A stretch of DNA of 64,000 bases from Escherichia phage GoldenSnicker, in the sequence record OR896832.1; one strand, written 5' to 3'. Made by a program: the position numbers and the translations under genes. The notes below the pieces were generated by a model, which saw only the letters and a list, made by a program, of their open reading frames with translations, had not been told where the DNA came from and did not search any database. This document shows, in pieces, positions 632-54,771 of this stretch. The stretch's first letter is position 1. Each line of letters opens with the position of its first letter.

Positions 632-671
632 TGTTTGATTCTCCTAAGTGGTATCTCGTTTCGATGGGTGT

Positions 672-700
672 ATTATGCTATAGGCGTGATCTGGTGTCAA
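672..700 (-). promoter_or_regulatory. sigma70-type early promoter (PeSL-like cassette)
   Basis: minus strand TTGACA (700..695), 17-bp spacer, CATAAT (677..672); near-identical copy at 1173-1201. Confidence 0.6.
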
Positions 701-720
701 CAACTTTTTTAAATTTTTGG

Positions 721-747
721 AAATAAAAAGCCGACACTAAGGTCGGC
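721..747 (-). terminator. rho-independent terminator
   Basis: hairpin gccgac/gtcggc followed by U-run on minus strand, directly downstream of ORF 752-1012. Confidence 0.6.
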
Positions 748-751
748 ACAT

Positions 752-1012
752 TTAAAAATTCTTGCTATATATGCAAGCCTCATAATCTAGAGGATGACCG
801 CCAATCCTACCAGGCTTAATATTCCAACCGCATCGATATTTGCTGACCATGCTAACCGTTTCGGTTCTTAGAGCATTTCTTTGCAAATCATACCCCCTAA
901 ATTCTTGTCTATAAGGACAGTCCGCTTTGCAAGTTGGTGGTTCTACGTCATTTAGCGGGTCAGAAGCAGTTGGCTTTATTATCAATTCTTTGTTTGCAAT
1001 AATCATAAGCAC
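752..1012 (-). CDS. hypothetical protein (start uncertain)
   Basis: 86-aa ORF, Cys-rich; overlaps 960-1154, so true start is probably internal. Confidence 0.3.
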   Translation of the reverse strand: MLMIIANKELIIKPTASDPLNDVEPPTCKADCPYRQEFRGYDLQRNALRTETVSMVSKYRCGWNIKPGRIGGHPLDYEACIYSKNF

Positions 1013-1154
1013 ATCTCATTGAAGGCAATTTAACATCTTCGCAATAAGTGTTGAATCCGTCAAATACAATCACTTCATATTTGACTCCATCGGCGATAGC
1101 TTTTACTTTATACCATCCATGCTTGTATAAAATCTTCATCTTCATTTCCCTCAA
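960..1154 (-). CDS. hypothetical small early protein
   Basis: 64-aa ORF downstream of promoter cassette 1173-1201; overlaps ORF 752-1012 in another frame. Confidence 0.4.
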   Translation of the reverse strand: MREMKMKILYKHGWYKVKAIADGVKYEVIVFDGFNTYCEDVKLPSMRCAYDYCKQRIDNKANCF

Positions 1155-1172
1155 TCTCGTTTCGATGTGTGT

Positions 1173-1201
1173 ATTATGCTATAGGCGTGATCTGGTGTCA
1201 A
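1173..1201 (-). promoter_or_regulatory. sigma70-type early promoter (PeSL-like cassette)
   Basis: TTGACA (1201..1196), 17 bp, CATAAT (1178..1173); part of a ~95-bp promoter+terminator repeat shared with 640-750. Confidence 0.6.
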
Positions 1202-1224
1202 TGCCTTTTTTAAAATTTTATGAA

Positions 1225-1250
1225 ATAAAAAAGCCGACACTAAGGTCGGC
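1225..1250 (-). terminator. rho-independent terminator
   Basis: same gccgac/gtcggc hairpin plus U-run as at 721-747, downstream of ORF 1259-1567. Confidence 0.6.
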
Positions 1251-1258
1251 TAATAAAA

Positions 1259-1567
1259 TCATTTAGACAAATAATCATTCTGTGCAATCCGGTCAGCATG
1301 TTCCGGCGTTACGTCAATTGCAATCACTTTAACGCGTGCTTTCTTGCGACCTGGGTTTTCTCGTAACCAGTGCTCATGACCGTGAACATTTTTATACTGC
1401 GATGCTTCTTCGAAGGTACGGATCGGACCTGGGTAATCAGCGTAAAGGATCTCTAGATCTTCAGTGATGTAAAAATATACATCGTAATTGCTGTTCTCTA
1501 GCTTAAGCAGAGACTTTCGGAACATTGGGAGATTTTCGCGGGTAAATTCAAAGATATTATCTTTCAT
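1259..1567 (-). CDS. hypothetical protein, member of HxHW/AxDV paralog family
   Basis: 102 aa; shares YxYI(T/D)EDL, HGHEHW and VIAIDV motifs with five neighbouring ORFs. Confidence 0.55.
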   Translation of the reverse strand: MKDNIFEFTRENLPMFRKSLLKLENSNYDVYFYITEDLEILYADYPGPIRTFEEASQYKNVHGHEHWLRENPGRKKARVKVIAIDVTPEHADRIAQNDYLSK

Positions 1568-1618
1568 AGTATTATCCTCAATAGTTGGATGAAAAGGGGG
1601 GGCTTAATGCCCCGTATA

Positions 1619-1906
1619 TTAAAACAGTCCTTCCTGTACACCGTAGTAGAGTTCATCGCTGATAATTTCATTAATGCGACGGTGTGCATATTCCTGATTT
1701 GCGAAGTTATCAGCAAGTTCTACTTTAGTTTCGCCGTCATGAGTCCATTTAGTGATAACTTTACCATCTGCAAATTTGAAGTTGAACTCTTTAGCTACTG
1801 CATCGCGTACCAGACGTGCGAACTTGTTGTTACGGATTGCATTATCGGTTTCGTGTGCAGCGTGAGCGAATTTGTTAACTTTCAGAGTGATAGTAATGTA
1901 TGCCAT
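1619..1906 (-). CDS. hypothetical small early protein
   Basis: 95-aa ORF; promoter cassette 1953-1981 upstream. Confidence 0.45.
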   Translation of the reverse strand: MAYITITLKVNKFAHAAHETDNAIRNNKFARLVRDAVAKEFNFKFADGKVITKWTHDGETKVELADNFANQEYAHRRINEIISDELYYGVQEGLF

Positions 1907-1952
1907 AATTTGATTCTCCTAGTTAGAAAGTGTATCTCGTTTCGATGGGTGT

Positions 1953-1981
1953 ATTATGCTATACACCCGATCTTATGTCAA
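1953..1981 (-). promoter_or_regulatory. sigma70-type early promoter (PeSL-like cassette)
   Basis: TTGACA (1981..1976), 17 bp, CATAAT (1958..1953). Confidence 0.55.
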
Positions 1982-1987
1982 CACTTT

Positions 1988-2281
1988 TTATAAAATAATT
2001 TTTTGATATTTTTCTATGATGTTCGTGTAAGTCACATCAACCGCTAGCACCGTTGCTTCGAATCCACCGTTTAGCCAATGGCTATGGTCATGGTCGTGAA
2101 AGAAACCAAGACCAGTACGAAGACCTTCTTTATATTCGGCGCGTACATTTAGATCATCATCGATAAACAGATAAAACCATGAATTTTTACTAGGATTGAT
2201 GATACAACCTTTCAGATTAGGGAGAATATCACGACTAAGAATAAACTTATCACCTACTTTGAACATAATATTAGTCCTCAC
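1988..2281 (-). CDS. hypothetical protein, HxHW/AxDV paralog family
   Basis: 97 aa; HDHDHSHW and VLAVDV motifs. Confidence 0.55.
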   Translation of the reverse strand: MRTNIMFKVGDKFILSRDILPNLKGCIINPSKNSWFYLFIDDDLNVRAEYKEGLRTGLGFFHDHDHSHWLNGGFEATVLAVDVTYTNIIEKYQKIIL

Positions 2282-2591
2282 TTATAAGGTCAAACCAATT
2301 GTTTTTCGCATAATGCTTAATGCGTGCTTGATCTGCTTCCGATGGTGATAGATTCCATGCAACCACTACAACTTCTGACGCATCGTCATCCGTTTCTGAT
2401 ACCCAATGATTGTGATTCATACAGTTATTTGCTATCGAGTGAGCAAATGATTTCATCACTGGAGACGTATAATCGTAGTAACGGATTTTCAGATTTTCAT
2501 CAACGTACAAATAGATCGTATAAGGTTTATATTCAGTAACCAGTAACAGACAGTTACGCAATTCTGGGAAAATCTTTTTAGTTAATTTCAT
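2271..2591 (-). CDS. hypothetical protein, HxHW/AxDV paralog family (start trimmed to internal Met)
   Basis: YLYVDENL and NHNHW motifs; listed ORF extends to 2672 but overlaps the next gene, so an internal start is preferred. Confidence 0.45.
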   Translation of the reverse strand: MKLTKKIFPELRNCLLLVTEYKPYTIYLYVDENLKIRYYDYTSPVMKSFAHSIANNCMNHNHWVSETDDDASEVVVVAWNLSPSEADQARIKHYAKNNWFDLISED

Positions 2592-2592
2592 T

Positions 2593-2832
2593 TTATAATC
2601 CTCGGTCTCGGCTATAGTACACGGTACGCCATACAATTTCATGTTTCGTGTCGCTCCAGCACACGATCTCATTTACTCTTAAATCTTTGTTATCAACAAA
2701 AGATGAACATTGTGACGCTTCTTTCATCATTTTATCTGCTGTTTTCTCATCAAATACAGCACAGATTTCTTTATACACTCGATAATCTTTGAATTGACTC
2801 TGGATACCCATAATTAACACCATTCCAACCAA
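2593..2832 (-). CDS. hypothetical protein, second small paralog pair
   Basis: 79 aa; SQFKDYRVYKEI...KMMKEASQC resembles neighbour 2771-3028 (SKFKDYKAYQQI...KMMEDASKC). Confidence 0.45.
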   Translation of the reverse strand: MVGMVLIMGIQSQFKDYRVYKEICAVFDEKTADKMMKEASQCSSFVDNKDLRVNEIVCWSDTKHEIVWRTVYYSRDRGL

Positions 2833-3028
2833 TTGTTTTTGAGAAAACGTTTATCCACTGTTGAGTGTAGCATGTTTCTTTCCATGATACAATACGAGTA
2901 GAATAATGGTTTTTGTTTCCAGAAAAGGACGGACATTTTGATGCATCTTCCATCATCTTTTCGGCGAACTCTGGTGCGTATACTCGCAGGATCTGTTGAT
3001 ATGCTTTATAATCTTTAAATTTGCTCAT
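2771..3028 (-). CDS. hypothetical protein, second small paralog pair
   Basis: 85 aa; paralog of 2593-2832. Confidence 0.45.
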   Translation of the reverse strand: MSKFKDYKAYQQILRVYAPEFAEKMMEDASKCPSFSGNKNHYSTRIVSWKETCYTQQWINVFSKTIGWNGVNYGYPESIQRLSSV

Positions 3029-3293
3029 AATTGTTAACTACCTTATCAGCTTCTTTTATTGTTTTTACATCAACTGCGATAATCCGTAAAGGTTCGTCGA
3101 AGGTCCACCAATGATCGTGATTATCAGCTTGTGATTTATCACCAAAGGAATCACGAATATCATTTTTACATTTATAGCTAATGTGACCGTCATAGTCAAT
3201 ATAAAGGTAATTATCGAAAATCGGCGTTTTTAAGATCATACCGAAAAATCTTTCTTTGTGTGTCTTATCCAGCGTTGCAGTAATTCGCATCAT
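3015..3293 (-). CDS. hypothetical protein, HxHW/AxDV paralog family
   Basis: 92 aa; YLYIDYDG, DNHDHWW, IIAVDV motifs. Confidence 0.55.
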   Translation of the reverse strand: MMRITATLDKTHKERFFGMILKTPIFDNYLYIDYDGHISYKCKNDIRDSFGDKSQADNHDHWWTFDEPLRIIAVDVKTIKEADKVVNNYEQI

Positions 3294-3517
3294 AATATAT
3301 TCCTCTTAGAAAGGGATGGTCATTTCTTGAGCTTGTACATTTTCGTTAGGATTAAACTTCATCCAACCGATATTGTCTACCAGTATATGCACATTTTTAT
3401 CATATCCTACGTGGGTAGTCAATACTGTATGTGCTTTACCTTCAATGATGAGTTCCATGTACTTCTGAACTTCGATAGCTTTCATTTTGATTCTCCGTTT
3501 GTTGTCTTGATGGGAGT

Positions 3518-3546
3518 ATCTTACTACTCCCTTTAATCATTGTCAA
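3518..3546 (-). promoter_or_regulatory. sigma70-type early promoter with inverted repeat
   Basis: TTGACA (3546..3541), 17 bp, TAAGAT; inverted repeat gggagta/tactccc spans the -10. Confidence 0.45.
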
Positions 3547-3549
3547 CTA

Positions 3550-3753
3550 TTATTTGTTAATTTCCGGTGCGTTGCTTGGATAGTAACCTTCTTTAACACC
3601 CAGATATTTTGCAACCATTCCGGTGATCTTCTGTGCTACTACGATATCGAATTTCAGGTAGTCTTCACCGTGGTTTGCTACAATGTATGCTTCGCATTCT
3701 GCTTTAGTCTGGAACATTTTTGATTCTCCTATATCTCGTTGGTATGTGTGCAT
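3550..3753 (-). CDS. hypothetical small early protein
   Basis: 67-aa ORF with promoter 3752-3781 upstream. Confidence 0.45.
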   Translation of the reverse strand: MHTYQRDIGESKMFQTKAECEAYIVANHGEDYLKFDIVVAQKITGMVAKYLGVKEGYYPSNAPEINK

Positions 3754-3781
3754 TATAGGGGATCACCGATCCCCTGTCAAC
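3752..3781 (-). promoter_or_regulatory. sigma70-type early promoter with palindromic spacer
   Basis: TTGACA (3781..3776), spacer containing ggggatcaccgatcccc inverted repeat, TATAAT (3757..3752). Confidence 0.55.
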
Positions 3782-3785
3782 AACT

Positions 3786-4136
3786 TTATAATGCTTTATA
3801 TGCGTATTTCATAAATTTGTCTGCCACTTCATTGGCATGTTCAGATTCTACGCCTGATTCGAGAACAATAGCTAGGTCGGTTTCGTCATTCCCGCCGTAC
3901 CAATGATTTGATGTTCGATTTTTTTCAATTGGAAATTGGTCACTTTTATCTGTGCGACAAAATACATCTAAATGCTCGTCGATGTAAAAGATCCAATCTT
4001 CATAAAGAATAACGGTATTAGCCAGATTTTTATTGCCTTCAACGAAAGGTTCGGCTACAAACAAATTAGTATGTTCCATAGTATTTTCCTCAAAATTATA
4101 CAGCTTCGTAAACTTCCCAATGTCCAACACCAGCAC
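3786..4136 (-). CDS. hypothetical protein, HxHW/AxDV paralog family (divergent)
   Basis: 116 aa; IFYIDEHL, SNHW, AIVLESGV motifs. Confidence 0.45.
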   Translation of the reverse strand: MLVLDIGKFTKLYNFEENTMEHTNLFVAEPFVEGNKNLANTVILYEDWIFYIDEHLDVFCRTDKSDQFPIEKNRTSNHWYGGNDETDLAIVLESGVESEHANEVADKFMKYAYKAL

Positions 4137-4287
4137 GCTTAACGAAAAGGTTTTCTTTTATGTTATTCATAAACGTCTGGATGGATTTAATGCGGTTTGA
4201 AGGTTTCCATTCTTCGTTGGCATTGCGTCGATACATCATAACATTACCAGTTCGCTTATATTCAGCAACCATTTTAAGACCACACAT
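4096..4287 (-). CDS. hypothetical small protein
   Basis: 63-aa ORF; overlaps 3786-4136 by about 40 nt. Confidence 0.35.
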   Translation of the reverse strand: MCGLKMVAEYKRTGNVMMYRRNANEEWKPSNRIKSIQTFMNNIKENLFVKRAGVGHWEVYEAV

Positions 4288-4343
4288 AATATTATCCTCA
4301 ATTTGTGGGAGAGTATTACCCTCCCGATTATTGTTATACTACA

Positions 4344-4646
4344 TTACGCAAAATTGCGTGTCAATGCTTCTTTTGCTGTTCCGCTAAGATTCTCGATCTC
4401 TCCTGGCATAACATCAACCGCAAGAACTTCTACAACATCCTCTGATCCTAACCAGTGAGTATGACCTTTGTAGAACTTGATATCCCATTTAACGCTATCG
4501 CTAGCCCACCACACATCACCGTCGATAAAGTTGATGTAAAGCACACTACGCCACATTGAATTAATTACTTTCAATACTGCGCCTTTCATCTCTTCCACGG
4601 TGTGGTCTTCCATTTTGAAGACCTCGCCTACCTTAACTTTTGCCAT
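4344..4646 (-). CDS. hypothetical protein, HxHW/AxDV paralog family
   Basis: 100 aa; YINFIDGD, KGHTHW, VLAVDV motifs. Confidence 0.55.
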   Translation of the reverse strand: MAKVKVGEVFKMEDHTVEEMKGAVLKVINSMWRSVLYINFIDGDVWWASDSVKWDIKFYKGHTHWLGSEDVVEVLAVDVMPGEIENLSGTAKEALTRNFA

Positions 4647-4663
4647 TTAGTCACCTCTCTTTA

Positions 4664-4843
4664 TTACATAACAATCACGCCAGCCGTTGAAAGTTGATGT
4701 TTCAACTGAGCATTTTCTGCTACCGTCAAATCAATGATTTCTTGTGACGCTGCAATCATATAGCCATTGGTGATATTGTTTTGCATCAGTTCAATGGTCT
4801 CTTCGTTGTAGCGGATTTTAGCGATGATTTCGTTGAAGTTCAT
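4664..4843 (-). CDS. hypothetical small protein (start at internal ATG)
   Basis: listed ORF 4664-4909 begins by reading through the promoter cassette; ATG at 4843..4841 follows a GGAGA SD. Confidence 0.45.
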   Translation of the reverse strand: MNFNEIIAKIRYNEETIELMQNNITNGYMIAASQEIIDLTVAENAQLKHQLSTAGVIVM

Positions 4844-4877
4844 AATTGATTCTCCTAGTTCGTTTCGGTATGTGTGT

Positions 4878-4906
4878 AGTATAGGGGATCGGTGATCCCC
4901 TGTCAA
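4878..4906 (-). promoter_or_regulatory. sigma70-type early promoter with palindromic spacer
   Basis: TTGACA (4906..4901), 17-bp spacer ggggatcggtgatcccc, TATACT (4883..4878). Confidence 0.55.
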
Positions 4907-4919
4907 CAACTTTTTTGAA

Positions 4920-5264
4920 TTATTTTTTCATGAGCTTAATGGCTTCTTCCATAGCCAACACATTTCGATAGTTAGGGTATCTTGTTAGATCGTCATACAT
5001 TCGCTTAAGGGTGGAAACTTCCTCAAACTCTGGGTTTTCAAGATACAATTGAACGAATTGTTTCTCTACCATCTCTGCTTTTAGCTTGTCTGCTTGTTCC
5101 TGTTCATATGATTTAGTTGGACCCAACACCAACAAAATGATAAAGGTGATCAACGGGCTAATGATCAACGATAGGAGAACATAACCGATAACGCTACGGT
5201 TTAAACGGCTTGCGTACATGCCTACCAGGAAAACAAAAAGGATATAGATAAACAGAAAGAACAT
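4920..5264 (-). CDS. small membrane protein
   Basis: 114 aa with two N-terminal hydrophobic segments and a charged C-terminal tail. Confidence 0.5.
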   Translation of the reverse strand: MFFLFIYILFVFLVGMYASRLNRSVIGYVLLSLIISPLITFIILLVLGPTKSYEQEQADKLKAEMVEKQFVQLYLENPEFEEVSTLKRMYDDLTRYPNYRNVLAMEEAIKLMKK

Positions 5265-5271
5265 ATAATGG

Positions 5272-5745
5272 TTACTCCTTATTTTCGCGCTCGTACTTTT
5301 CGAAATAAAATTCTACTGGCTGGTCGTGGATTGACAGCAAGCCAAAGCGTTTAGCCGCTCGCAACCCCATATTGCGCTGAATGTACTTCTGGAAGTTCTC
5401 TCGTATACACTTACGCCAGTATTCTAAGCCCATACAGCTTTTATAAAGATTGCATTGCACACACGACGGATTCATGTTATCAAGTATATCATGTTCCGGT
5501 TTATGCATTCCTACAACCTTATACTTCCACGATCCATCATCATTACGGGCAATTCGTCCCTTTTCATCATAGACTACTTTTGAGCGTCGCAATACTGGTT
5601 TGATGTGGTCTGCGTGCCAGCGATCCCCTAGTTCCTCGCCACAATAGGCACAACGTCCACCGTATTTCATTTTCAGGATCTGGCGTTGCTCTTTCTTTGA
5701 CAATTTTTTAGGTTTAGGGGCTTTCGCCCCTTCATTATCACACAT
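5272..5745 (-). CDS. HNH endonuclease (free-standing, homing-type)
   Basis: CAYCGEEL...HADHIKP...CVQCN HNH motif; overlaps 3' end of the ligase gene by 8 nt. Confidence 0.65.
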   Translation of the reverse strand: MCDNEGAKAPKPKKLSKKEQRQILKMKYGGRCAYCGEELGDRWHADHIKPVLRRSKVVYDEKGRIARNDDGSWKYKVVGMHKPEHDILDNMNPSCVQCNLYKSCMGLEYWRKCIRENFQKYIQRNMGLRAAKRFGLLSIHDQPVEFYFEKYERENKE

Positions 5746-7234: not shown

Positions 7235-7700
7235 TTTCACCTCGTTTTGTTAAACGTTCACGAATATCATTGAGGATACTACAAAATTCCGATTCAGTCA
7301 ATATAGTCTTTAACGGATCGGTTCCACCTATACTATGACGTAATTTCTTATTTCCGGTAGAGAGTAATGCTTTACAAAATGCTGGGTTATTCCGTGCCAT
7401 CGTAACAAATGCCAGATGTACCAGTCTGTAATAATGCTCACTCATTCGATGAATCGGGCGACCCTGAAAATATAACATGTGATTCTCAATCTTTTCAGTT
7501 CTTCCGGTTCTTTTTGCTTTGCCACCGTGCATCAAAAAGATTTCTCTTTGTCTCTGAGGGTTCTTAAATCTTAGCCCCTGTAAAAATCCTTCTGTGCTGT
7601 TAATATCGCAACCAAATAGACGGAATGGTCTTTTATTGAAATTACTCAATTCACCCGATGGATAAGGTCCACCCGCATAGATATCAATTTCAGAAGTCAT
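7221..7700 (-). CDS. NADAR (DUF1768/YbiA-like) domain protein
   Basis: YAGGPY...LSNF...PF...F.S.EGFLQGLRF pattern resembling YbiA/NADAR. Confidence 0.5.
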   Translation of the reverse strand: MTSEIDIYAGGPYPSGELSNFNKRPFRLFGCDINSTEGFLQGLRFKNPQRQREIFLMHGGKAKRTGRTEKIENHMLYFQGRPIHRMSEHYYRLVHLAFVTMARNNPAFCKALLSTGNKKLRHSIGGTDPLKTILTESEFCSILNDIRERLTKRGENVNS

Positions 7701-7872: not shown

Positions 7873-7899
7873 TCAATAACTTACAAAATCATATAGCCA

Positions 7900-40049: not shown

Positions 40050-40205
40050 TTAAATTTCTTCTACAGTAAAGTCTTCAATGTTGTTGTGCTCGGAGAACGT
40101 TGCCAGACCAGCATTCCATGCATCATCCTCAGAGAAGAATACACCGTAACGTTCATATCCTTTAGCGCCTTCAAATTTAATCATTAATTTGTGAGTATGT
40201 TTCAT
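40050..40205 (-). CDS. hypothetical small protein (internal start)
   Basis: 51 aa from ATG after the promoter cassette. Confidence 0.35.
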   Translation of the reverse strand: MKHTHKLMIKFEGAKGYERYGVFFSEDDAWNAGLATFSEHNNIEDFTVEEI

Positions 40206-40236
40206 TTTGATTCTCCTTCGTTGTCTTGATGGGTTT

Positions 40237-40265
40237 AGTATAGGGGATCGCCGATCCCCTGTCAA
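40237..40265 (-). promoter_or_regulatory. sigma70-type early promoter with palindromic spacer
   Basis: TTGACA (40265..40260), spacer ggggatcggcgatcccc, TATACT (40242..40237). Confidence 0.55.
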
Positions 40266-40275
40266 CAACTATTTT

Positions 40276-47671: not shown

Positions 47672-47682
47672 TTTTCTACTCC

Positions 47683-48073: not shown

Positions 48074-48094
48074 CCTTTTGTTTTCTATGGGGAT

Positions 48095-48123: not shown

Positions 48124-48131
48124 CGGATTTT

Positions 48132-48431
48132 TTAATCTTTTTTCAGTGCATCCATTACTCGCTCTGCGATCAGTTCTCTTAAGCACTGATAACCATGATA
48201 TTTGATGGCAATGTCACGCAGATCATTAACCAGTTCCCGTACTTCATGGTCTTTCAGATCGTCTCTGTATTTCGATTTAATCGTATCTTTAGGTGGATTG
48301 CGGATAACCTGAAAACCTTGTTCTGCAATCACTGCGGCTTCGCGCTGGCGTTCATGTTGTACTGTATTTTTGATCAGGTCTGCTTCCATGAACTTTGCCA
48401 TACTCATCATCATGTTATTCTTTTTGCTCAT
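48132..48431 (-). CDS. hypothetical protein (internal start)
   Basis: about 99 aa from MSKKNN; promoter 48466-48494 upstream. Confidence 0.4.
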   Translation of the reverse strand: MSKKNNMMMSMAKFMEADLIKNTVQHERQREAAVIAEQGFQVIRNPPKDTIKSKYRDDLKDHEVRELVNDLRDIAIKYHGYQCLRELIAERVMDALKKD

Positions 48432-48465
48432 TATTAAATCCTCATAAAAGAAAAGGGAGACTCCC

Positions 48466-48494
48466 ATTATAGAGAATCTCCCTTGTATGTCAAG
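48466..48494 (-). promoter_or_regulatory. sigma70-type early promoter
   Basis: TTGACA (48494..48489), 17 bp, TATAAT (48471..48466). Confidence 0.5.
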
Positions 48495-48496
48495 TG

Positions 48497-50320
48497 TTAT
48501 GATTGCATCCAAATTTTGCGCTGATCTGCATCTTCACTATAGAGCAAATCGAATAGCTCTTTATAGTTTTCCGGTAACGTGATGATCTCCATGACAGGAT
48601 CGTTGATCACGCGATGATAGTCTGATTCTGTGAGCGATGCTAAACCTTTTATATATCGAATGTTGTAACCTTTGATATTATCTCGGTCGTTCTCGAAATC
48701 TTCTAGGTCATAATACCATCGAACATCATCACCTTTCTTTGGTTCAGCAATGATAATAGGTGTTTTGATAAACCGGATTCGTCCATCTTCGAACAATTCA
48801 GGCCAACGTGCAAAGAAAGAGATCAGACTAGGCTTAATAGACCCGATCCCGTCGGTATCAGCGTCTGTCATAATCGCAATATTTTTGTATTGCATAACTT
48901 CCAATGCATCAACACCAAATTGCAAACCAGTGATCGCCATGATGTTAAAAATTTCGGCGTTCTTAACGATCTTTGCCTCTGGTTGCTCCCACGTTGTAAG
49001 AGTTTTACCTCGCAACGGGAAACCTCCATGTAAATCTTGATCACGTACAGAGATCAGATAGTTGATCGCGGAATCACCTTCCGTCAAAAACAGGGTAGTT
49101 TCTGCGTCAGTTCCAATAAGGTTAGCTTTAACGTGTTTTGCTACCTTAGCCCGTTTTGCTGCCTTTGCTGCCTTAGTCGCTGCCGCTTTATCTGCTGCCT
49201 CTTTGCGTGCCAGGACTACAGCAATAATAGGCATGATAATGTTTTCTTTCTTCGCAATGACTTTAGCCAGTTTTTTAAAGTCCAGATCAATGTGTCGCTT
49301 GATATCACCAGTTGGATTAGTCAAGCGTTCTTTTGTCTGTGAATCAAAGCGCAAGTTAGGCAATTCACGAACAATAAGAATACAGGTCAATCCAGACTTA
49401 ACCGCAGCTTTAGTAACATCAACCTTATATTCTTTCTTGATTCGTTTTACAATCTCTTCACAAAGATCATCTGTCACGTAGTCTACGTGTGTTCCCCCGT
49501 TTTTGGTAAACAGACCATTAGCAAAGGATACTGATTTAAAACCTTCTCCCTCGACCGCCGGAACTAGAGCAAGTGAAAAGTTTTTATCTTCAATGACAAA
49601 CGGATCATCATTGTATAGTTTAGCATAATCCTTGAACTTACTAACAATACGTTTACCATTAAACTTAAACGTGATCTTAGGAAAGATTACGCTCAATGAT
49701 TGCAGACGATCATGAACAATATCTAAAACAGAGTTGTCCATCATATAACCTTCGAAGTGGTCGAAGTCTGGGCAAAATGTAACCTTTGTTCCCTTCAATT
49801 TTGATGGTTTTGACGACCATGTGATATTTTCAGCGCCGTTTGTGCACTGTACGGTCATTTCTGTTTCGCCGTCACATGTTACACCAGTAAACCAATCGCT
49901 AAAGAAATTTGACAACGACGACCCCACACCGTTCATCCCTTGCGTTAATCGATTGGTATCATCAAAGTTAGACCCTGCTTTTGTTCGTGTCCATGCGGCT
50001 ACAGGTTGCGGAATCTGCGTACCCTCTGGGGTAGTAACCATATGTTGAGGAATACCGCGACCATTGTCTGTTACCGTAACAATATTGTTTTGGATATCGA
50101 CGCTAATCACATTGGCAAATTCAAAGTTAGTGCGGATCGCCTCGTCTACAGAGTTGTCGATGATCTCATCAATGATTTTAACCAGTCCAGGAACATATGA
50201 AATTTTTGTCCACTTACCGAACAGGAAACGTTGATGTTCTTCGTAAGTTGTTGATCCTATATACATTCCTGCACGCTTAAGGACATGTTCACGATCAGAT
50301 AAAATGCGAAACTCACTCAT
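48497..50320 (-). CDS. 39: DNA topoisomerase II large subunit (GyrB-like), fused 39+60 type
   Basis: 607 aa single ORF; N-terminal ATPase region LKRAGMYIGS; length equals gp39 plus gp60 of T4. Confidence 0.85.
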   Translation of the reverse strand: MSEFRILSDREHVLKRAGMYIGSTTYEEHQRFLFGKWTKISYVPGLVKIIDEIIDNSVDEAIRTNFEFANVISVDIQNNIVTVTDNGRGIPQHMVTTPEGTQIPQPVAAWTRTKAGSNFDDTNRLTQGMNGVGSSLSNFFSDWFTGVTCDGETEMTVQCTNGAENITWSSKPSKLKGTKVTFCPDFDHFEGYMMDNSVLDIVHDRLQSLSVIFPKITFKFNGKRIVSKFKDYAKLYNDDPFVIEDKNFSLALVPAVEGEGFKSVSFANGLFTKNGGTHVDYVTDDLCEEIVKRIKKEYKVDVTKAAVKSGLTCILIVRELPNLRFDSQTKERLTNPTGDIKRHIDLDFKKLAKVIAKKENIIMPIIAVVLARKEAADKAAATKAAKAAKRAKVAKHVKANLIGTDAETTLFLTEGDSAINYLISVRDQDLHGGFPLRGKTLTTWEQPEAKIVKNAEIFNIMAITGLQFGVDALEVMQYKNIAIMTDADTDGIGSIKPSLISFFARWPELFEDGRIRFIKTPIIIAEPKKGDDVRWYYDLEDFENDRDNIKGYNIRYIKGLASLTESDYHRVINDPVMEIITLPENYKELFDLLYSEDADQRKIWMQS

Positions 50321-50419
50321 TATTAAACCTCTTCATAACATAACCATAACTTACTGCAACCGCCACAAAGACGGCTGCAACAATCATATTAAAAATTGAG
50401 TGATTGTCAAGTATATGAC

Positions 50420-50593
50420 TCATGACACGCGCACATTTTTATCGTAATACCCGCCATTAATCCCGCGCGGGGCAGTCAATCCCTGTTTGCATTCTTTACC
50501 GCATTCAGGGCATTCTGCCTTTTCACGCTCGGAAATTTTGCGGATTTTCTGAAATTGACCGTGTTCTTCACAAGAATAATCGTATAATGGCAT
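50420..50593 (-). CDS. FmdB-like zinc-ribbon protein
   Basis: MPLYDYSCEEHG...CPECG; about 57 aa from the internal ATG. Confidence 0.5.
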   Translation of the reverse strand: MPLYDYSCEEHGQFQKIRKISEREKAECPECGKECKQGLTAPRGINGGYYDKNVRVS

Positions 50594-50594
50594 A

Positions 50595-51263
50595 TTATCC
50601 CCTTTGTTTCTTAACTGAATTTGGATCTGGATTTTCTGGTAGGTCTTCCAGACCCATAGCATAACGTTGTGCATAGATTAGCATAAGAATATCGCGAGCG
50701 CAATCATGAATTGCATCATGTGCGATAAAACCATCTAGCGTACCCATTGGTAACGGACACTCACACATCCCGCGATGCATCAATGTACGCTCAATGGCGG
50801 TGCGAACATCTCGGATATTCCAGAATCGCACAGGTTCAAGGCTGAACGTCTCTCGTGTATTGTGTGCACGGCGGATCATATCAACTAGTAACGGAATATC
50901 AAACGCATTACCGCGTGACCACAATACGGATTTAACCGGATCTACTCCTACGGCTTCACAGAATGCGTTAAAACGCGCTAAACCTTCTTTAGTTGATACT
51001 TCCGTACCATTTGTGATTAATTGCTTTCTCATGCCTTCTGAGGCGGTATTCTTCCACCATTCAACCACACCATGATCAAACACCCTTACACCTTTCTGGG
51101 AAGGAATATCAAATTTTACCAGAAAGGAATTGTCAACCAGTTCTTTAAATGTAGGTGGATTGTGCGGATCTTCTTTAAATCCGATTGCCGCCATATTGAT
51201 AACCGCCCCATCAGGCGGATAACCTAAACTTTCAAAGTCAATCATTAAATCCACTGGAAGCAT
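50595..51263 (-). CDS. dexA: 3'-5' exonuclease, DexA-like (DnaQ fold)
   Basis: Exo I motif MIDFESLG and Exo III motif HDAIHD; 222 aa; sits before dda as in T4. Confidence 0.7.
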   Translation of the reverse strand: MLPVDLMIDFESLGYPPDGAVINMAAIGFKEDPHNPPTFKELVDNSFLVKFDIPSQKGVRVFDHGVVEWWKNTASEGMRKQLITNGTEVSTKEGLARFNAFCEAVGVDPVKSVLWSRGNAFDIPLLVDMIRRAHNTRETFSLEPVRFWNIRDVRTAIERTLMHRGMCECPLPMGTLDGFIAHDAIHDCARDILMLIYAQRYAMGLEDLPENPDPNSVKKQRG

Positions 51264-51264
51264 T

Positions 51265-51504
51265 TTAAATATCCTCCGCGATATGCCGGAACAACTCCAG
51301 ATCGTTTTTATCTAACACTAGATTGCATTTGGTTGACCGATAATTGCAAACATTAATCAGTAAACTTTCCATCGCCTGTACCGACTGTACTTTATGTCGA
51401 AAAGACATTACATGTTGTGCATAATCAGCGTGAATTTTATCACGATGGAATGTTACGATGGCATCTAAACATAACAGTTTATCAAGTTCATCAATAATCA
51501 TCAT
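51265..51504 (-). CDS. hypothetical protein
   Basis: 79-aa ORF. Confidence 0.4.
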   Translation of the reverse strand: MMIIDELDKLLCLDAIVTFHRDKIHADYAQHVMSFRHKVQSVQAMESLLINVCNYRSTKCNLVLDKNDLELFRHIAEDI

Positions 51505-51505
51505 A

Positions 51506-51688
51506 TCAGTAACCCCGCTTAGTGAAGTGATCTATCATGGAATTAATACAATCGGCCTCGCTGATTCCAGATATACCCCATCCGTAGTTACCCCACCTGA
51601 AATGCATGTATACACATTCGCCATGATACGATACTTTCACTTCGTCAAATTCTGGGATACTTCGCATAATCATAATAATATTCCTCAA
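51506..51688 (-). CDS. hypothetical small protein
   Basis: 60-aa ORF. Confidence 0.35.
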   Translation of the reverse strand: MRNIIMIMRSIPEFDEVKVSYHGECVYMHFRWGNYGWGISGISEADCINSMIDHFTKRGY

Positions 51689-53076
51689 ATATAGTCTACA
51701 CGATACCGTGCACGGGTAACACCCACATATAATAACTGCATTGCCAATTCAAAGTCAACATTATCTGTACACATGCAAGGGGTATACAGGAACACGCGGT
51801 CTACGCTGATTCCTTGTGACTTATGAATAGTGCAAGCTGGTAATGCTTTTACATTCAAGAACATACGCTTCATCGTCCAGAAAGAATCCCAATCCGGTTT
51901 AAATTTTGGATTCTCTTTCTTCATTTCGCGATATTGTCCGGCGACCGTATTCAGATAGATAGAGAAAATGTTCTTCTGACGTTGTTCTGTCAGAATGTTG
52001 ATTTCTACTAAATCTGGTTTATCTGTAGTGATTCCGACTGCATCTAACCCTACTTTCTGATTTAGGATTTCTTTGTCTTCGTCATCATCGACGCTTTCCA
52101 CTTTCAGAGTATATCCTAAAACTGGTTGCGGATCTACCCCCGTGCAACGTAATGTAAATTCACGCGGGATGACCTCTTTAACTCGGATCATCTCACCATT
52201 GTTAAAAATAACATTGGGAATCTTCTTCCCGCGTTCATCTCGCAGATATTCGATCAATGGTTCCTGAGTAACCAGAATTTCATCTACAATCACTGGTTCA
52301 TCGGTGTTATAAACGCGCTTACGTACAATTTCATTGAGTTTTTCGACGCTCTTGTTAGTGTAAGCCAGAATACGGTTTTCTAGAAGGTCTTCCGGCGTTT
52401 TAACGGTTTCGAAATAATGCTTCATAAACTCCGGCAGAGTTGAGCTATGGAATACACCCTCGTTACCGCACTGCTTTTCGAATACCCATTTACCATTACG
52501 GACAGCGGTTGCAACGTCAATTATTGGTGCATTGGACCGTTTAATCTCTGTGAGTTCTACATTCTGGAAATTTTCATCCGTGAAGAAAGGAGAGATCGAC
52601 GTTGCACCGCTCGGATCAACTGGTCGTAACTGGTGAGGATCGCCAACTGCAATAACAACAATTCGACCGTTGATACTCTTCATGAGAATATCAAATAGTT
52701 TCTTATCGACCATACTCGCTTCATCAACAATGATGATCTGAACATCATCTAGCTTAGGAGTATCTTTTTGCTCAAATACTTGAGTATCTTCATAGTTGGT
52801 CGGGTTAAGACGCAATAAAGCATGTAAAGTAAATGCTTGACGACCTACCGCTTTACTCAAAACTTTTTTAGCCTGGTGGGTAGGCGTTGCCAAAACCACA
52901 CCAGTTACACCACGGCGGACCATTTCCTGAACAATGAATTTCATCATTGCGGTTTTACCAGTACCCGCCGCACCACGGACAGTTGTATGCTTCTTTTGTT
53001 CAATGCGTTTCATTAGAACATCAAAAGCATGTTTTTGCCCGTCTGTTAACATATCGAAAGTTAATACTCTGCTCAT
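51685..53076 (-). CDS. dda: SF1 DNA helicase Dda
   Basis: Walker A GAAGTGKT, FDxLTDGQKHAF N-terminus, C-terminal YVGVTRAR; colinear with T4 Dda. Confidence 0.85.
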   Translation of the reverse strand: MSRVLTFDMLTDGQKHAFDVLMKRIEQKKHTTVRGAAGTGKTAMMKFIVQEMVRRGVTGVVLATPTHQAKKVLSKAVGRQAFTLHALLRLNPTNYEDTQVFEQKDTPKLDDVQIIIVDEASMVDKKLFDILMKSINGRIVVIAVGDPHQLRPVDPSGATSISPFFTDENFQNVELTEIKRSNAPIIDVATAVRNGKWVFEKQCGNEGVFHSSTLPEFMKHYFETVKTPEDLLENRILAYTNKSVEKLNEIVRKRVYNTDEPVIVDEILVTQEPLIEYLRDERGKKIPNVIFNNGEMIRVKEVIPREFTLRCTGVDPQPVLGYTLKVESVDDDEDKEILNQKVGLDAVGITTDKPDLVEINILTEQRQKNIFSIYLNTVAGQYREMKKENPKFKPDWDSFWTMKRMFLNVKALPACTIHKSQGISVDRVFLYTPCMCTDNVDFELAMQLLYVGVTRARYRVDYI

Positions 53077-53390
53077 TATCCTAAAATCCTCACCTTGCGA
53101 ACACAGATAGTATTGAGTTCTCGCCGTACCCGTTCTTTCTCATATTCAGGAATTTTGTATTCTATACCATCCCGAACAATTTCAGAAGACCGGATTATAC
53201 CAAATTTTCGTTTAGGCACAACCTTGTATTTCGGTTCACCTGCCAATAGACTCTCACAATAATCTATCTGATCACACATTGACGCTAACGCAGCATCATG
53301 TGTTTCGCAAGTTAGGACGCGACCCTTCGCGTCCACTGAGTATTGAAAGAATCCGTCTTTATCACGATAACATACAGCAAATACATGCAT
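53076..53390 (-). CDS. hypothetical protein
   Basis: 104-aa ORF. Confidence 0.4.
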   Translation of the reverse strand: MHVFAVCYRDKDGFFQYSVDAKGRVLTCETHDAALASMCDQIDYCESLLAGEPKYKVVPKRKFGIIRSSEIVRDGIEYKIPEYEKERVRRELNTICVRKVRILG

Positions 53391-54145
53391 TATAAACCTA
53401 CCTTCGCTTTCATCAATTCAATCCACGACGCATCAATCGGAAGCCCGTATTTCACGCGTTCTTTTTGTGCTGGCGTTAAGTTCTCATACTTAGAAAGAGA
53501 TTCAATCAAAACGCTGGTATATTTTAGCACGATTTCGGTATTGTTTGCAATAGCCTTAAGTTTTTCTTCTTTCTTGTTGATTTCGCTAAGGGCTTGCTTG
53601 AGATCTGCAATTTTCTGATAACGTTCTTCCATACGGAAGAGAGTATTTTTAATCGCTCGCTCGGCTGCCTCTGCTTTCTCCGGTTCGTTGTGCTTTTTGT
53701 GGCGCTCGATTGCTAATTTCTTTTCTTCGATTGCCATTTCCTGATTTTTGATGCGATTCTCGTTAAGTTCGATCCACTCGATGTACTTCGCACGTAGGGC
53801 AATTTCATCATCAGAAAGTTTACCGTTAGTTCCTAGTTCCTGGATCTCTTTAAGAGATTCGATAGTGTGATTGCCACGGAAAGAATTGTATTTCAGTTTA
53901 ACCGGAATTACATTGCCATCAACATATCCCAGATTGCAATCAATGCGCTCTAAGGAGAGTCCGTCATCACCTTCACCGAAAGCCTCACCTGAATAGGCAC
54001 AATGAGTCTGGCGGTAAATGTTACGAACAGTGACTAAGCTCATAGAGAAGTCTTTGTTGCGACGTGAAGCACCAGCCATGATAGAGTTCAGCCGGAAAAC
54101 AACCAGCGCCAATTCTTCGTTAGATTTAAAAGCAAACAGTTTCAT
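53390..54145 (-). CDS. hypothetical protein with coiled-coil C-terminal half
   Basis: 251 aa; N-terminal Cys/His-containing region then a long charged helical region; no confident family assignment. Confidence 0.4.
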   Translation of the reverse strand: MKLFAFKSNEELALVVFRLNSIMAGASRRNKDFSMSLVTVRNIYRQTHCAYSGEAFGEGDDGLSLERIDCNLGYVDGNVIPVKLKYNSFRGNHTIESLKEIQELGTNGKLSDDEIALRAKYIEWIELNENRIKNQEMAIEEKKLAIERHKKHNEPEKAEAAERAIKNTLFRMEERYQKIADLKQALSEINKKEEKLKAIANNTEIVLKYTSVLIESLSKYENLTPAQKERVKYGLPIDASWIELMKAKVGL

Positions 54146-54206
54146 AATTGATTCTCCTTAGTTGGCATGTGTGTATTATTGTCTATCTGGTTTGTGCTGT
54201 CAACAC

Positions 54207-54710
54207 TTAAATTAAAGAAAATTTGTAAATCTCTATCAGATCGCCGTTACACGCGTAAACTTCCTCGATCTCATCAAGGATCATGGTCGTCCCTGTCTTG
54301 TATATGCACTCGCGCTCATCTGCCAACATAGCATACAAAGACAGTCGAGTAGTCGGATTGTCATACTCTTTAGACACCACTCGGTCAATAGCATGTTCGT
54401 AATAATTCATGCAAGGCTTGGTAGGTTTTATTGCAATAATCTTTCCTGTTGCATAAACATCGGTTGCAAAGTCCTCTGCTGTTGATTGTAGTGGCGTAAA
54501 GCTCATAGGACGCTCTACAACGAAAGAATCACCCACAATTAAGGTATCCAGCTTACGGCCTTCTCTTTTGCTCACACCGCGATACAAGGCTTCATGATGC
54601 ACTAACCGTTCAGTCTTTTCGATCAATCCATTAAGGATCGACATATCGATATTTTCTTTAGAGTTCATCACTTCATCAATGATGTTAAGTTCTTCTGGTG
54701 TAAATTGCAT
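54207..54710 (-). CDS. ADP-ribosyltransferase, ModA/ModB-like
   Basis: candidate R-S-E triad: YRG, STAED, ERE; start at ATG after GGAGG SD (listed ORF start lies inside the promoter). Confidence 0.5.
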   Translation of the reverse strand: MQFTPEELNIIDEVMNSKENIDMSILNGLIEKTERLVHHEALYRGVSKREGRKLDTLIVGDSFVVERPMSFTPLQSTAEDFATDVYATGKIIAIKPTKPCMNYYEHAIDRVVSKEYDNPTTRLSLYAMLADERECIYKTGTTMILDEIEEVYACNGDLIEIYKFSLI

Positions 54711-54742
54711 AATAAAAAGCCTCCAATCTTTCGACGGGAGGC

Positions 54743-54771
54743 ATAATAAAACCATTATAGAGTAGTGTCAA
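54743..54771 (-). promoter_or_regulatory. sigma70-type early promoter
   Basis: TTGACA (54771..54766), 17 bp, TATTAT (54748..54743). Confidence 0.5.

Follow-up and report, generated by a model that had tools for sequence, protein, structure and literature searches.

Repeated early promoter/stem-loop cassettes of probable PeSL type before small genes of the Krischvirus GoldenSnicker

Results

Locus and cassettes

The window, i.e., the whole 64,000-nucleotide stretch of Escherichia phage GoldenSnicker (OR896832.1) analysed here, belongs to an RB49-like T4-like coliphage of the genus Krischvirus. It was 95–98% identical to Krischvirus genomes (best identity to any deposited genome ≤98.3% for the two stretches searched), and its gene order was collinear with that of RB49 from ORF193 to gene 43, with uvsX at 59750–60820. 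In these same loci of RB49 and phi1, promoter-early stem-loops (PeSLs) were defined by Arbiol et al. (2010; PMC2839356). The promoter-bearing intergenic features of the window, all on the minus strand (−), were as follows:

292–361 (−): cassette upstream of ORF 10–291 (RB49 ORF193 homologue); promoter 353–325, TTGACA-17-CATAAT; no stem-loop (fold unstructured, z = +0.2)
632–751 (−): cassette upstream of ORF 362–631; promoter 700–672; terminator hairpin 730–747 + T-run; A-tract, ACACCCAT leader, and GGAGAATCA as ribosome-binding site; this cassette is one of the two repeats on either side of the ORF195/196 unit and lies at the junction of a 406-bp indel
1140–1258 (−): sister cassette of 632–751, upstream of ORF 960–1139; promoter 1201–1173; terminator hairpin 1232–1251 + T-run
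1907–1987 (−): cassette upstream of ORF 1619–1906; promoter 1981–1953; 8-bp stem GGGTGTAT/ATACACCC across −10 (−13.8 kcal/mol, z = −3.9)
3486–3549 (−): cassette upstream of ORF 3306–3485; promoter 3546–3518; stem GGGAGTA/TACTCCC across −10
3718–3785 (−): cassette upstream of ORF 3550–3717; promoter 3780–3752, 12/12 consensus; spacer filled by palindrome GGGGATC-ggt-GATCCCC
4288–4370 (−): probable weaker cassette upstream of ORF 4096–4287; promoter 4364–4336, TTGACA-17-TAGTAT; −35 overlaps the preceding ORF's end; short stem over −35
4844–4919 (−): chimeric cassette upstream of ORF 4664–4843 (ORF209 homologue); promoter 4906–4878; spacer palindrome GGGGATC-acc-GATCCCC
13052–13121 (−): cassette upstream of ORF 12653–13051; promoter 13113–13085; stem GGGAGTA/TACTCCC across −10; with 13272–13338, flanks a unit absent from two relatives (junction overlap 95 nt)
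13272–13338 (−): cassette upstream of ORF 13122–13271; promoter 13338–13310; compensated stem GGGGGTA/TACCCCC across −10
13558–13624 (−): cassette upstream of ORF 13339–13557; promoter 13617–13589; stem GGGGGTA/TACTCCC (one G-T pair) across −10
13844–13943 (−): cassette upstream of ORF 13625–13843; promoter 13896–13868; terminator hairpin 13911–13934 + T-run
16101–16168 (−): cassette between nrdA and ORF 15933–16100; promoter 16160–16132, TTGACG-17-TATAAT; stem GCGGGGA/TCCCCGC from the last −35 base through the spacer (−19 kcal/mol, z = −5.2)
20956–21020 (−): early promoter upstream of ORF 20626–20955; 21014–20987, 12/12, 16-nt spacer; without stem-loop
22182–22303 (−): cassette upstream of ORF 21003–22181; promoter 22241–22214; terminator hairpin 22272–22295 + T-run; right boundary of a gene-segment replacement vs. 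RB49 and Phi1
23273–23340 (−): early promoter upstream of gene 32 (22304–23272); 23336–23309, 12/12; without stem-loop; counterpart of the early promoter annotated at gene 32 in the RB49 record
39978–40049 (−): cassette upstream of ORF 39219–39977; promoter 40042–40014; stem GGGAGTA/TACTCCC across −10; boundary of the ORF261 indel
40206–40275 (−): cassette upstream of ORF 40050–40205; promoter 40265–40237; spacer palindrome GGGGATC-ggc-GATCCCC
40489–40549 (−): cassette upstream of ORF 40276–40488; promoter 40546–40518, TTGACG-17-TAACAT; stem GGGAGTA/TACTCCC across −10; ~500-bp insertion immediately upstream in four relatives
40989–41099 (−): cassette upstream of ORF 40716–40988; promoter 41048–41020 (TTGACT-17-CATAAT); terminator hairpin 41068–41090 + T-run; 235-bp insertion in two relatives, with a 38-nt overlap in the leader
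48065–48131 (−): cassette upstream of ORF 47870–48064; promoter 48123–48095; stem GGGGATAT/ATATCCCC across −10
48432–48496 (−): cassette upstream of the RB49 ORF005 homologue; promoter 48493–48466, 12/12; 13-bp stem across −10 (−21.3 kcal/mol, z = −5.3); 589-bp insertion at the −35 edge in one relative
54146–54206 (−): cassette upstream of the srd homologue (53390–54145); promoter 54203–54175, TTGACA-17-AATAAT; without stem-loop; ribosome-binding site GGAGAATCA
54711–54778 (−): cassette upstream of the modB homologue (54207–54710); promoter 54771–54743; leader hairpin GCCUCC..GGAGGC + U-run downstream of −10
61021–61095 (−): cassette just downstream of gene 43; promoter 61092–61065, 12/12; 12-bp hairpin downstream of −10 (−24.2 kcal/mol)
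63761–63830 (−): promoter upstream of gene 43; 63821–63793, 12/12; with 61021–61095 brackets the DNA polymerase gene, as in RB49 and phi1 (PMC2839356)

A scan for TTGACA-N17-TANNNT returned 22 matches, 22/22 on the minus strand, vs. a shuffle mean of 1.07 and a shuffle maximum of 5; when at least 10 of 12 positions had to match, 68–69 minus-strand and 10 plus-strand matches were obtained. About half of the strict matches were intergenic, the remainder being intragenic and devoid of the extended cassette signature. After CATAAT/AATAAT −10 variants, 16-nt spacers, and TTGACG/T variants were added to the strict pattern, approximately 26 intergenic cassettes were counted, in line with the minimum of 16 minus-strand intergenic promoter sites proposed in the initial annotation; three (292–361, 61021–61095, and 63761–63830) lay beyond the span 640–54771 given there. 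Their common layout consisted of a stop codon, AAAAAGTTG, TTGACA, a 16–17 nt spacer, and (T/C)ATAAT, followed by an ACaCCCAT leader, GGAGAATCA, and ATG. The distance from the end of the −10 to the start codon was 24–48 nt, after correction of one mis-called start at 48493. GGAGAATCA was found upstream of 12/26 cassette-preceded genes vs. 1/81 others, and a repeat finder independently recovered the cassette families as D1–D5 and D7–D10.

The inverted repeats quoted previously were located as described: the spacer repeat ggggatcNNNgatcccc at 3780, 4906, and 40265, gggagta..tactccc at 3546, 13113, 40042, and 40546, and ggggatat..atatcccc at 48123. The shared pseudo-N-termini MLTGD(H/R)RSPIL, attributed earlier to the conserved sequence, were indeed the promoter read in frame (ORFs 4664–4909 and 40050–40268), since TTG TTG ACA GGG GAT C(A/G)C CGA TCC CCT ATA CT translates to (M)LTGD(H/R)RSPIL; the third palindrome copy contains an in-frame TGA. 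The repeat pair at 640–750 and 1150–1255 was real, but the reported 95% identity over ~95 bp was slightly high: 89/97 positions (92%) agreed from hairpin to leader, with 96/110 aligned columns identical overall and 47/48 in the promoter core. Relative to transcription, its terminator hairpin, described as downstream, actually precedes the promoter (its plus-strand coordinates are higher), and therefore terminates the preceding gene.

Hairpins and stem covariation

A G-tract/C-tract hairpin was present in about 20 cassettes (−9 to −24 kcal/mol), whereas five or six of the ~26 had no convincing hairpin. For stable cassette folds, energies of −10 to −24 kcal/mol were obtained, with z-scores between −1.9 and −5.5. 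The hairpin could sit in the spacer, span the −10, follow the −10, or precede the promoter as a T-run-bearing terminator; this last arrangement often occurred in cassettes without a spacer or across-the-−10 hairpin. Among 23 distinct hairpin variants, 138/138 cells were paired, with three Watson-Crick pair types at stem position 4 and two each at positions 5 and 6; 0/10,000 shuffles reached the observed value. The pairing of the stem thus appears to be under selection.

The palindromes GGGGATC-N3-GATCCCC, each with two GATC sites, could alternatively be operators for a dimeric DNA-binding protein or methylation-sensitive switches of early promoters, instead of forming RNA or DNA hairpins, as suggested by their perfect dyad symmetry, their exact positioning in the promoter spacer, and the annotation of a Dam methyltransferase in relatives. 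TTGACA-N3-GATC also occurred at 7/51 minus-strand TTGACA sites vs. ~0.3 expected at one offset (a rough estimate from GATC density), but the GATC-bearing copies derive from few related families, so this count is not independent. Compensatory stem substitutions (e.g., GGGGATC/GATCCCC to GGGGAG/CTCCCC), unrelated stem sequences at shifted positions in other cassettes, and loops free to vary and even to be inverted fit selection on pairing instead of a protein recognition sequence, making an operator function improbable. As a separate observation, the spacer palindrome's 3-nt loop was inverted in place between orthologues identical elsewhere.

Where the hairpin lies in the spacer or across the −10, its 3′ arm ended at or before −1, and it is consequently absent from the cassette's own transcript. 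Hairpins across the −10 were followed by a CAUCAAGA-type sequence, not by a U-run; they may also terminate transcription, efficient intrinsic termination at them being putative.

Indels and chimeric cassettes

Early regions were compared across 17 loci, drawn from 16 related genomes or contigs, and the repeats were present at orthologous positions in related genomes. Sixteen insertion, deletion, or replacement events were recorded, and in 11/16 a cassette (+15 nt) lay at one boundary or more, this zone making up 6% of the compared DNA (P ~1e-7). Both ends were in cassettes in 6/16 events, with a duplicated junction of 0–97 nt (at least 11 nt in five), and 5/16 events involved no cassette.

It is possible, though we consider it rather unlikely, that the cassettes are ordinary early promoters and terminators, alike because selection favours the same strong signals, with recombination incidental, as at any repeat, and not a gene-shuffling function. 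Of the intergenic DNA in the early regions compared, cassettes constituted ~66%, so that gene-avoiding indels would often land there; enrichment was not significant against a null in which indels fall between genes (6/7 non-coding boundaries were in cassettes). The cassette-free events also suit such an explanation, as does the conservation of orthologous cassettes (93–95%), no better than that of flanking ORFs (93–97.5%), and most copies are mutually only 60–88% identical and hence lend themselves poorly to efficient homologous exchange. Against it stand the six cassette-to-cassette events, five with duplicated junctions of 11–97 nt, and two single-copy cassettes with the expected chimeric parentage. 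The 5′ half of 4844–4919 matched RB49 PeSL211/210 and its 3′ half PeSL210/209, the cassettes flanking ORF210 in RB49, and ORF210 was missing from GoldenSnicker; 4844–4919 is the recombinant expected from a PeSL211/210 × PeSL210/209 crossover with loss of ORF210. The other was the 194/197 cassette of Phi1. The similarity, moreover, well exceeds promoter needs, continuing into the leader and up to GGAGAATCA, an exact 9-mer, which points to common descent or whole-cassette copying, and mini-circles with cassette junctions have been sequenced in RB49/phi1 (PMC2839356). In any case, the objection concerns the significance of the elements and not their identity.

Small ORFs between structured repeats, excisable as circles (PMC2839356), also recall integrons, and Comeau et al. 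(2014) left "homologous or site-specific" open. Targeting by a site-specific recombinase is nevertheless extremely improbable: crossover sites differed among events (A-tract/−35 for ORF210 and ORF261, promoter core for ORF195/196, leader for the 235-bp insertion), junction overlaps ranged from 0 to 97 nt, and no integrase or recombinase is annotated in the homologous regions of RB49, Phi1, and GEC-3S. Crossovers spread over sub-regions are what homology-driven exchange predicts.

Discussion

In RB49 and phi1, a PeSL combines a σ70-like early promoter (TTGACA-N17-TATAAT), preceded by AT-rich sequence, with a G(n)-loop-C(n) stem-loop that can occupy any of five positions, and its 3′ end comprises a Shine-Dalgarno sequence and the ATG of a small ORF; PeSLs cluster in hyperplastic regions and are associated with indels (PMC2839356; PMC4122927). 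All of these sequence features recur in the cassettes of the window, and 3718–3785 was identical to RB49 PeSL206/205 (86/86), a strong promoter in vivo (~13,000 Miller units; PMC2839356). The RB49 early consensus is consistent with 5′-end mapping (PMC1524935), and the RB49 PeSL211/210 stem-loop was about as efficient a terminator as rrnB T1 (PMC2839356). The cassettes are thus very probably PeSLs of an RB49-type T4-like coliphage, as their resemblance had led the initial annotation to suggest. Activity as promoters and terminators, like the formation of mini-circles, is presumed here by analogy with RB49/phi1. Since PeSLs of RB49-type coliphages were published in 2010, the repeats represent a correct rediscovery and not a novelty, the in-place loop inversion being one small addition to the known picture.

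Each cassette would constitute a self-contained expression unit before a small early gene. Its A-rich tract and near-consensus σ70 promoter would be recognized by the host RNA polymerase in its unmodified form immediately after infection, and the G-tract/C-tract hairpin, conserved A/C-rich leader, and strong GGAGAATCA ribosome-binding site would complete the unit. Hairpins in the spacer or across the −10 would form only in read-through RNA from upstream, which they may terminate, attenuate, or cap. The ~26 copies had the same orientation and shared 47–110 nt. The homologous-recombination machinery of the phage, presumably in a UvsX-dependent manner, could cross over between copies, either excising the gene between them as a circle or inserting a gene. 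In agreement with the earlier proposal that cassettes act as recombination substrates, small genes would in this way be shuffled with their reading frames and expression signals intact.

Cassettes and their promoters

Megablast of positions 1-6000 and 36000-50000 matched about 60 genomes of Krischvirus (RB49-like, T4-type) coliphages at 90-98% identity, with vB_Eco_SAP and TB34 as the best matches (98.3%) and no identical genome. The window is collinear with RB49 117,965-164,018 over positions 10-45290 (ORF193 to ORF272) and with RB49 1-18,711 over 45291-64000 (rIIA to gene 43). Its gene map, in which a RecA-like uvsX gene was located, runs on the minus strand throughout, save for a late block at 26371-36922 with tail-fibre genes 34-37 and the holin gene.

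The pattern TTGACA-N17-TANNNT was matched 22 times in the window, all on the minus strand (22/22), and on average 1.07 times (maximum 5) in shuffled sequences. This excess and the complete strand bias rule out a chance origin of the matches. A looser scan (at least 10 of 12 matching positions) gave 68-69 minus-strand vs. 10 plus-strand matches. At a permissive threshold (at least 9 of 12), positions 1-20000 were not enriched in promoter matches (69 vs. 57.6 ± 5.9 in shuffles) or in terminator-like sites (18 vs. 13.4 ± 3.6), and the signal is therefore carried by the high-scoring tier and the strict pattern only.

From the gene map, 34 minus-strand intergenic gaps of at least 40 nt were extracted, of which approximately 26 contained a near-consensus promoter with 24-48 nt between the end of the -10 and the start codon. 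These 26 promoters scored 9-12 out of 12 (25 of them at least 10), and all were on the coding (minus) strand. The initial annotation had counted at least 16 intergenic sites, a number that was reached once CATAAT variants and 16-nt spacers were included (approximately 26); "intergenic" is true of only some of the 22 strict matches, since about half of them lie inside genes and are devoid of the extended cassette signature. Such intragenic TTGACA-N17 sites (e.g., 18557, 18934, 39020, 45550, 47508, and 57545) were rejected as cassettes because they have no A-tract, leader, or ribosome-binding site (RBS) signature, and some may function as early promoters within genes. Sites 2293 and 26325, where the -10 abuts or overlaps the start codon, were also dropped. 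A further site, TTGACA-N17-TAAGAT at 35866-35838 on the minus strand, lies antisense to tail-fibre gene 37, within its 3' end; an A-rich tract precedes it, the cassette leader and RBS are lacking, and it may be either an early promoter in antisense orientation or a product of chance.

Alignment of the intergenic regions, the route to a consensus suggested initially, revealed a shared anatomy reaching far beyond the two promoter hexamers: a stop codon, taAAAaAgttG, TTGACA, a spacer of 16-17 nt, (T/C)ATAAT, ACaCCCAT..aaA, GGAGAATCA, and ATG. The taAAAaAgttG tract abuts the 5' side of TTGACA, and the stop codons fall within it. The exact 9-mer GGAGAATCA precedes 12 of the 26 cassette genes (e.g., at 292-310, 632-650, 3718-3735, and 4844-4862) vs. 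1 of 81 other genes, and GGAG was found in 18 of the 26 cassettes. The T4 endoribonuclease RegB cleaves at GGAG in Shine-Dalgarno sequences, and the GGAG-bearing early mRNAs of cassette genes may be shut off together. The same cassette families were recovered by a repeat finder used without a promoter model.

Cassettes are clustered at 292-4919, 13052-13943, 39978-41099, and 48065-48496, and two of them (61021-61095 and 63761-63830) bracket gene 43. This siting, in hyperplastic regions and next to plastic genes (gene 43 being one), is the one preferred by promoter-early stem-loops (PeSLs). The late tail-fibre block at 26371-36922 contained no cassette.

Two copies had been described as about 95% identical over about 95 bp (640-750 and 1150-1255). 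The repeat pair is real, with 92% identity from hairpin to leader (89 of 97 columns); over the whole alignment of 632-751 with 1140-1258, 96 of 110 columns were identical, and in the promoter core 47 of 48. The terminator hairpin, placed downstream in that description, and its T-run actually precede the promoter when read in the direction of transcription. The shared MLTGD(H/R)RSPIL pseudo-N-termini were correctly attributed to the cassettes: they are TTG-TTGACA-GGGGATC... read in frame, where the ORF lister runs the mechanical ORFs 4664..4909 and 40050..40268 up through the promoter, starting at the TTG just before TTGACA. The true starts are likely the ATGs further downstream, at 4843 and 40205, each preceded by GGAGAATCA. 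For annotation, ORFs beginning with MLTGD(H/R)RSPIL result from translating promoter sequence, and their start should be moved to the ATG downstream.

Stem-loops

A hairpin was present in approximately 20 of the 26 cassettes, and a convincing stem was missing from five or six. Inverted repeats in the spacer or over the -10, as first noticed, were borne out in four and nine cassettes, respectively.

Hairpin positions in the cassettes
Across the -10, nine cassettes, minus strand: G-tract in the 3' half of the spacer paired with a C-tract just after the -10; stems include GGGAGTA/TACTCCC, GGGGGTA/TACCCCC, GGGTGTAT/ATACACCC, GGGGATAT/ATATCCCC, and a 13-bp stem at 48493
Spacer palindrome, four cassettes, minus strand: three are GGGGATC-N3-GATCCCC filling the spacer; the fourth, at 16160, is GCGGGGA/TCCCCGC from the last base of the -35
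Upstream terminator, five cassettes, minus strand: canonical hairpin and T-run 5' of the A-tract
Leader hairpin, two cassettes, minus strand: downstream of the promoter

Folding energies predicted for the cassettes lay between -10 and -24 kcal/mol (z-scores between -1.9 and -5.5); for cassette 292-361, no structure was predicted. Covariation was assessed on hairpins from the window and related loci, 23 distinct variants in all, in which all stem cells were paired (138/138), with three Watson-Crick pair types at stem position 4 and two each at positions 5 and 6. The observed pairing was not reached in any of 10,000 partner shuffles; as the 23 sequences are related to one another, this counts as support and not as a strict probability. 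A search of Rfam 15 gave no family at gathering score anywhere in the window.

In RB49 early promoters, C residues fill positions -3 to -1 (PMC1524935), so that +1 falls on the A of CCCAT. Hairpins of the spacer and across -10 classes consequently have a 3' arm that ends at or before -1, and are thereby excluded from the transcript of their own cassette. With the start so predicted from sequence, they can act solely at the level of RNA arriving from upstream, or of single-stranded DNA.

Correspondence with published PeSLs

PeSLs were defined in coliphages RB49 and phi1 (Arbiol, Comeau, Kutateladze, Adamia & Krisch 2010, Genome Biol Evol 2:140; PMC2839356), with 51-52 per genome, mainly in hyperplastic regions and before ORFans, and also flanking gene 43. 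There, the promoter of PeSL206/205 yielded approximately 13,000 Miller units of lacZ, and the PeSL211/210 stem-loop terminated transcription about as well as rrnB T1 (PMC2839356). The window cassettes share with these elements the genus, the loci, TTGACA-N17-TATAAT, the AT-rich tract, the positions of the G(n)-loop-C(n) stem, the Shine-Dalgarno sequence and ATG at the 3' end, the hyperplastic clustering, and the association with indels; cassette 3718-3785 is identical to RB49 PeSL206/205 (86/86). No difference of kind was found, only another complement of cassette-flanked ORFs, as ORF195/196 and ORF211 are kept in this isolate and ORF210 is absent. The assignment to PeSLs in the initial annotation is thus supported by the sequence tests of promoter, A-tract, stem-loop, Shine-Dalgarno sequence and ATG, location, and indel association.

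The early consensus of RB49, with T or C at -12, agrees with the mapped 5' ends of early transcripts (Nolan et al. 2006; PMC1524935), and this -12 and the C residues at -3 to -1 match (T/C)ATAAT-ACaCCC in the window. T4-type early promoters likewise are strong, depend on host sigma-70, and have an A-rich upstream element (PMC1524935), a description that alone leaves out the hairpin, the shared leader and RBS, and the role in recombination. Comeau et al. 2014 restated the RB49-type consensus as TTGACA-N17-TATAAT with G(n)-loop-C(n) and described variants in other T4-like groups (PMC4122927). The PeSL/PmSL elements of T4/PST and KVP40/nt-1 are also promoter-terminator composites before small variable genes and are implicated in indels between close relatives (PMC4122927). 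Their consensus is TTTACW-N17-TAYWAT or TTGYVH-N17-TAWWAT with stems AGNA/TCNT or A3-4G3/C3T3-4 (PMC4122927), whereas the window has the near-perfect sigma-70 boxes and G(n)/C(n) stems of the RB49 type.

Regarding their spread, an IMG/VR search anchored on DNA ligase gave two close relatives, and GenBank phage records were used for comparison. The exact spacer-palindrome pattern occurred in IMG/VR only in these two Krischvirus contigs. The across -10 stem pattern was found in three extra small contigs, one of which (L029) comes from a different genome region of a diverged Krischvirus-like phage; the other two share no more than the 22-mer with the cassettes. The IMG/VR pattern searches thus gave no evidence for spread of the cassettes outside the genus.

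Indels and recombination at cassettes

BLAST alignments of the window with 17 loci from 16 related genomes or contigs were chained, and 16 distinct insertion, deletion, or replacement events were found in the early regions. A cassette was touched by 11 of these, with both ends in cassettes in six and one end in five; the remaining five touched none. Such a comparison of cassette-flanked ORF content had been proposed at the outset; between RB49 and phi1, 10 of the 14 differing genes adjoin a PeSL (PMC2839356). Overlaps in the six events with both ends in cassettes were 0-97 nt, and duplicated junction sequence was present in five of them.

Events with both ends in cassettes
748-1153, ORF195/196 unit of 406 bp: missing from nine relatives, overlap 95-97 nt
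ORF210 unit: present in RB49, FL15, and G2248, missing from the window, 75 nt of duplicated cassette
13127-13259, ORF226 unit: missing from two relatives, overlap 95 nt
40058-40265, ORF261 unit: missing from three relatives, overlap 18-29 nt
Leader of 40989-41099, 235-bp insertion: overlap 38 nt
A-tract edge of 40206-40275, 272-bp insertion in Phi1: no overlap

Cassettes extended by 15 nt account for 6% of the compared DNA, corresponding to P ~1e-7 for 11 of 16 events. Against an intergenic-only null, enrichment of the 16 events in the compared early regions was not significant; as cassettes constitute 66% of all intergenic DNA, the null that indels merely avoid genes is not rejected. The stronger argument for recombination at cassettes is qualitative and is supported by duplicated junction sequence and chimeric parentage. 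Cassette 4844-4919 has the upstream flank of RB49 PeSL211/210 but, from the loop through the 3' arm and leader to the RBS, corresponds to PeSL210/209, with the switch point within 25 nt common to both parents, AAAAAAGTTGTTGACAGGGGATCAC. Conversely, the single 194/197 cassette of phi1 is a chimera of the two copies in the window. Circles bounded by chimeric PeSLs form during RB49/phi1 infection, as established by inverse PCR and sequencing (PMC2839356); the window shows the genomic products of cassette exchanges, namely chimeric cassettes and indel junctions. Better conservation of cassettes than of flanking genes was unsupported (orthologues 93-95% vs. 93-97.5%).

Small genes that lie between structured repeats, leave as circles, and re-insert are also typical of integron gene cassettes with their attC sites, a likeness in how the system works only. 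A PeSL unit, by contrast, brings its own promoter, and its crossover points are variable rather than fixed. Membership of the integron type was rejected, given that the crossover sub-region varies between events (overlaps of 0-97 nt) and that no integrase is present in the annotation of the homologous regions of RB49, Phi1, and GEC-3S. Because crossover points differ between events, homology-driven over site-specific exchange is favoured, and PeSL exchange appears to be driven by homology.

Other variable sites were also observed. The 392-aa ORF at 21003-22181, a homologue of RB49 ORF239, has a C-terminal part common to RB49 and Phi1, and approximately 860 bp at its 5' end are replaced relative to both; the boundary lies exactly at the start codon, adjoining cassette 22182-22303, and GEC-3S has the allele of the window. 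The stretch 34189-35388, in distal tail-fibre gene 37, is replaced by unrelated sequence in each of RB49, Phi1, and GEC-3S; it is the region usually variable with host range and is unconnected with the cassettes. Relatives carry extra DNA at 4644-4646 (265 bp in FL15 and G2248, junction without a cassette), at 8283-8309 (640 bp between genes 31 and 31.1 in ECD7, junction without a cassette), and at 48493-48525 (589 bp in LF73P4), one possibility being that these inserts carry homing-endonuclease genes.

Apparent loop inversion and GATC sites

Palindrome loops were compared at 3718-3785, 4844-4919, and 40206-40275 and at orthologous sites in related loci L001, L003-L010, and L016-L021. Orthologues of 3718-3785 have identical 42 nt upstream and 45 nt downstream, and the 3-nt loop of the palindrome alone differs. 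In pairs, the loop variants are reverse complements of each other, ggt (window, RB49) with acc (W115) and tgt (Whisky) with aca (SFHK24); the pair ggc/gcc occurs at another palindrome site. Judged from these sequences, the variation looks like in-place inversion by template switching within the palindrome.

TTGACA-N3-GATC occurs at 7 of 51 minus-strand TTGACA sites, a count that is not independent because the copies fall into a few related families.

GATC sites following the -35
700, 1201, 1981, 3780, 4906, 40265, and 48123, minus strand: GATC at offset 4 after the -35
13896, minus strand: GATC at offset 5 after the -35

Genome-wide avoidance of GATC was not detected (353 observed vs. 343 expected), and a dam methyltransferase is annotated in related phage genomes. 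Neither in-place loop inversion nor positional GATC was found in the accessible portion of the text of the 2010 PeSL paper (PMC2839356). In view of loop inversion, fixed GATC, and a phage-encoded Dam methylase, the palindromes might, beyond a role as RNA terminators, be strand-exchange hotspots or methylation-sensitive modulators of early promoter strength, and the stem-loops might also form single-stranded DNA hairpins in vivo and actively create early-promoter variation. This reading as a whole seems to us rather improbable, and loop inversion constitutes a minor lead on whether the palindromes fold at the DNA level.

Implications for T4-type phages

PeSLs are the published account of how T4-type phages swap small accessory genes with expression signals undamaged. 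The cassettes described here are already known, since a published element was rediscovered in the phage group where PeSLs were defined. GoldenSnicker is one more isolate in which the predicted products are legible in the sequence, both as single chimeric cassettes where relatives have two and as cassette-bounded units present or absent among relatives, and it supports the published PeSL model without extending it.
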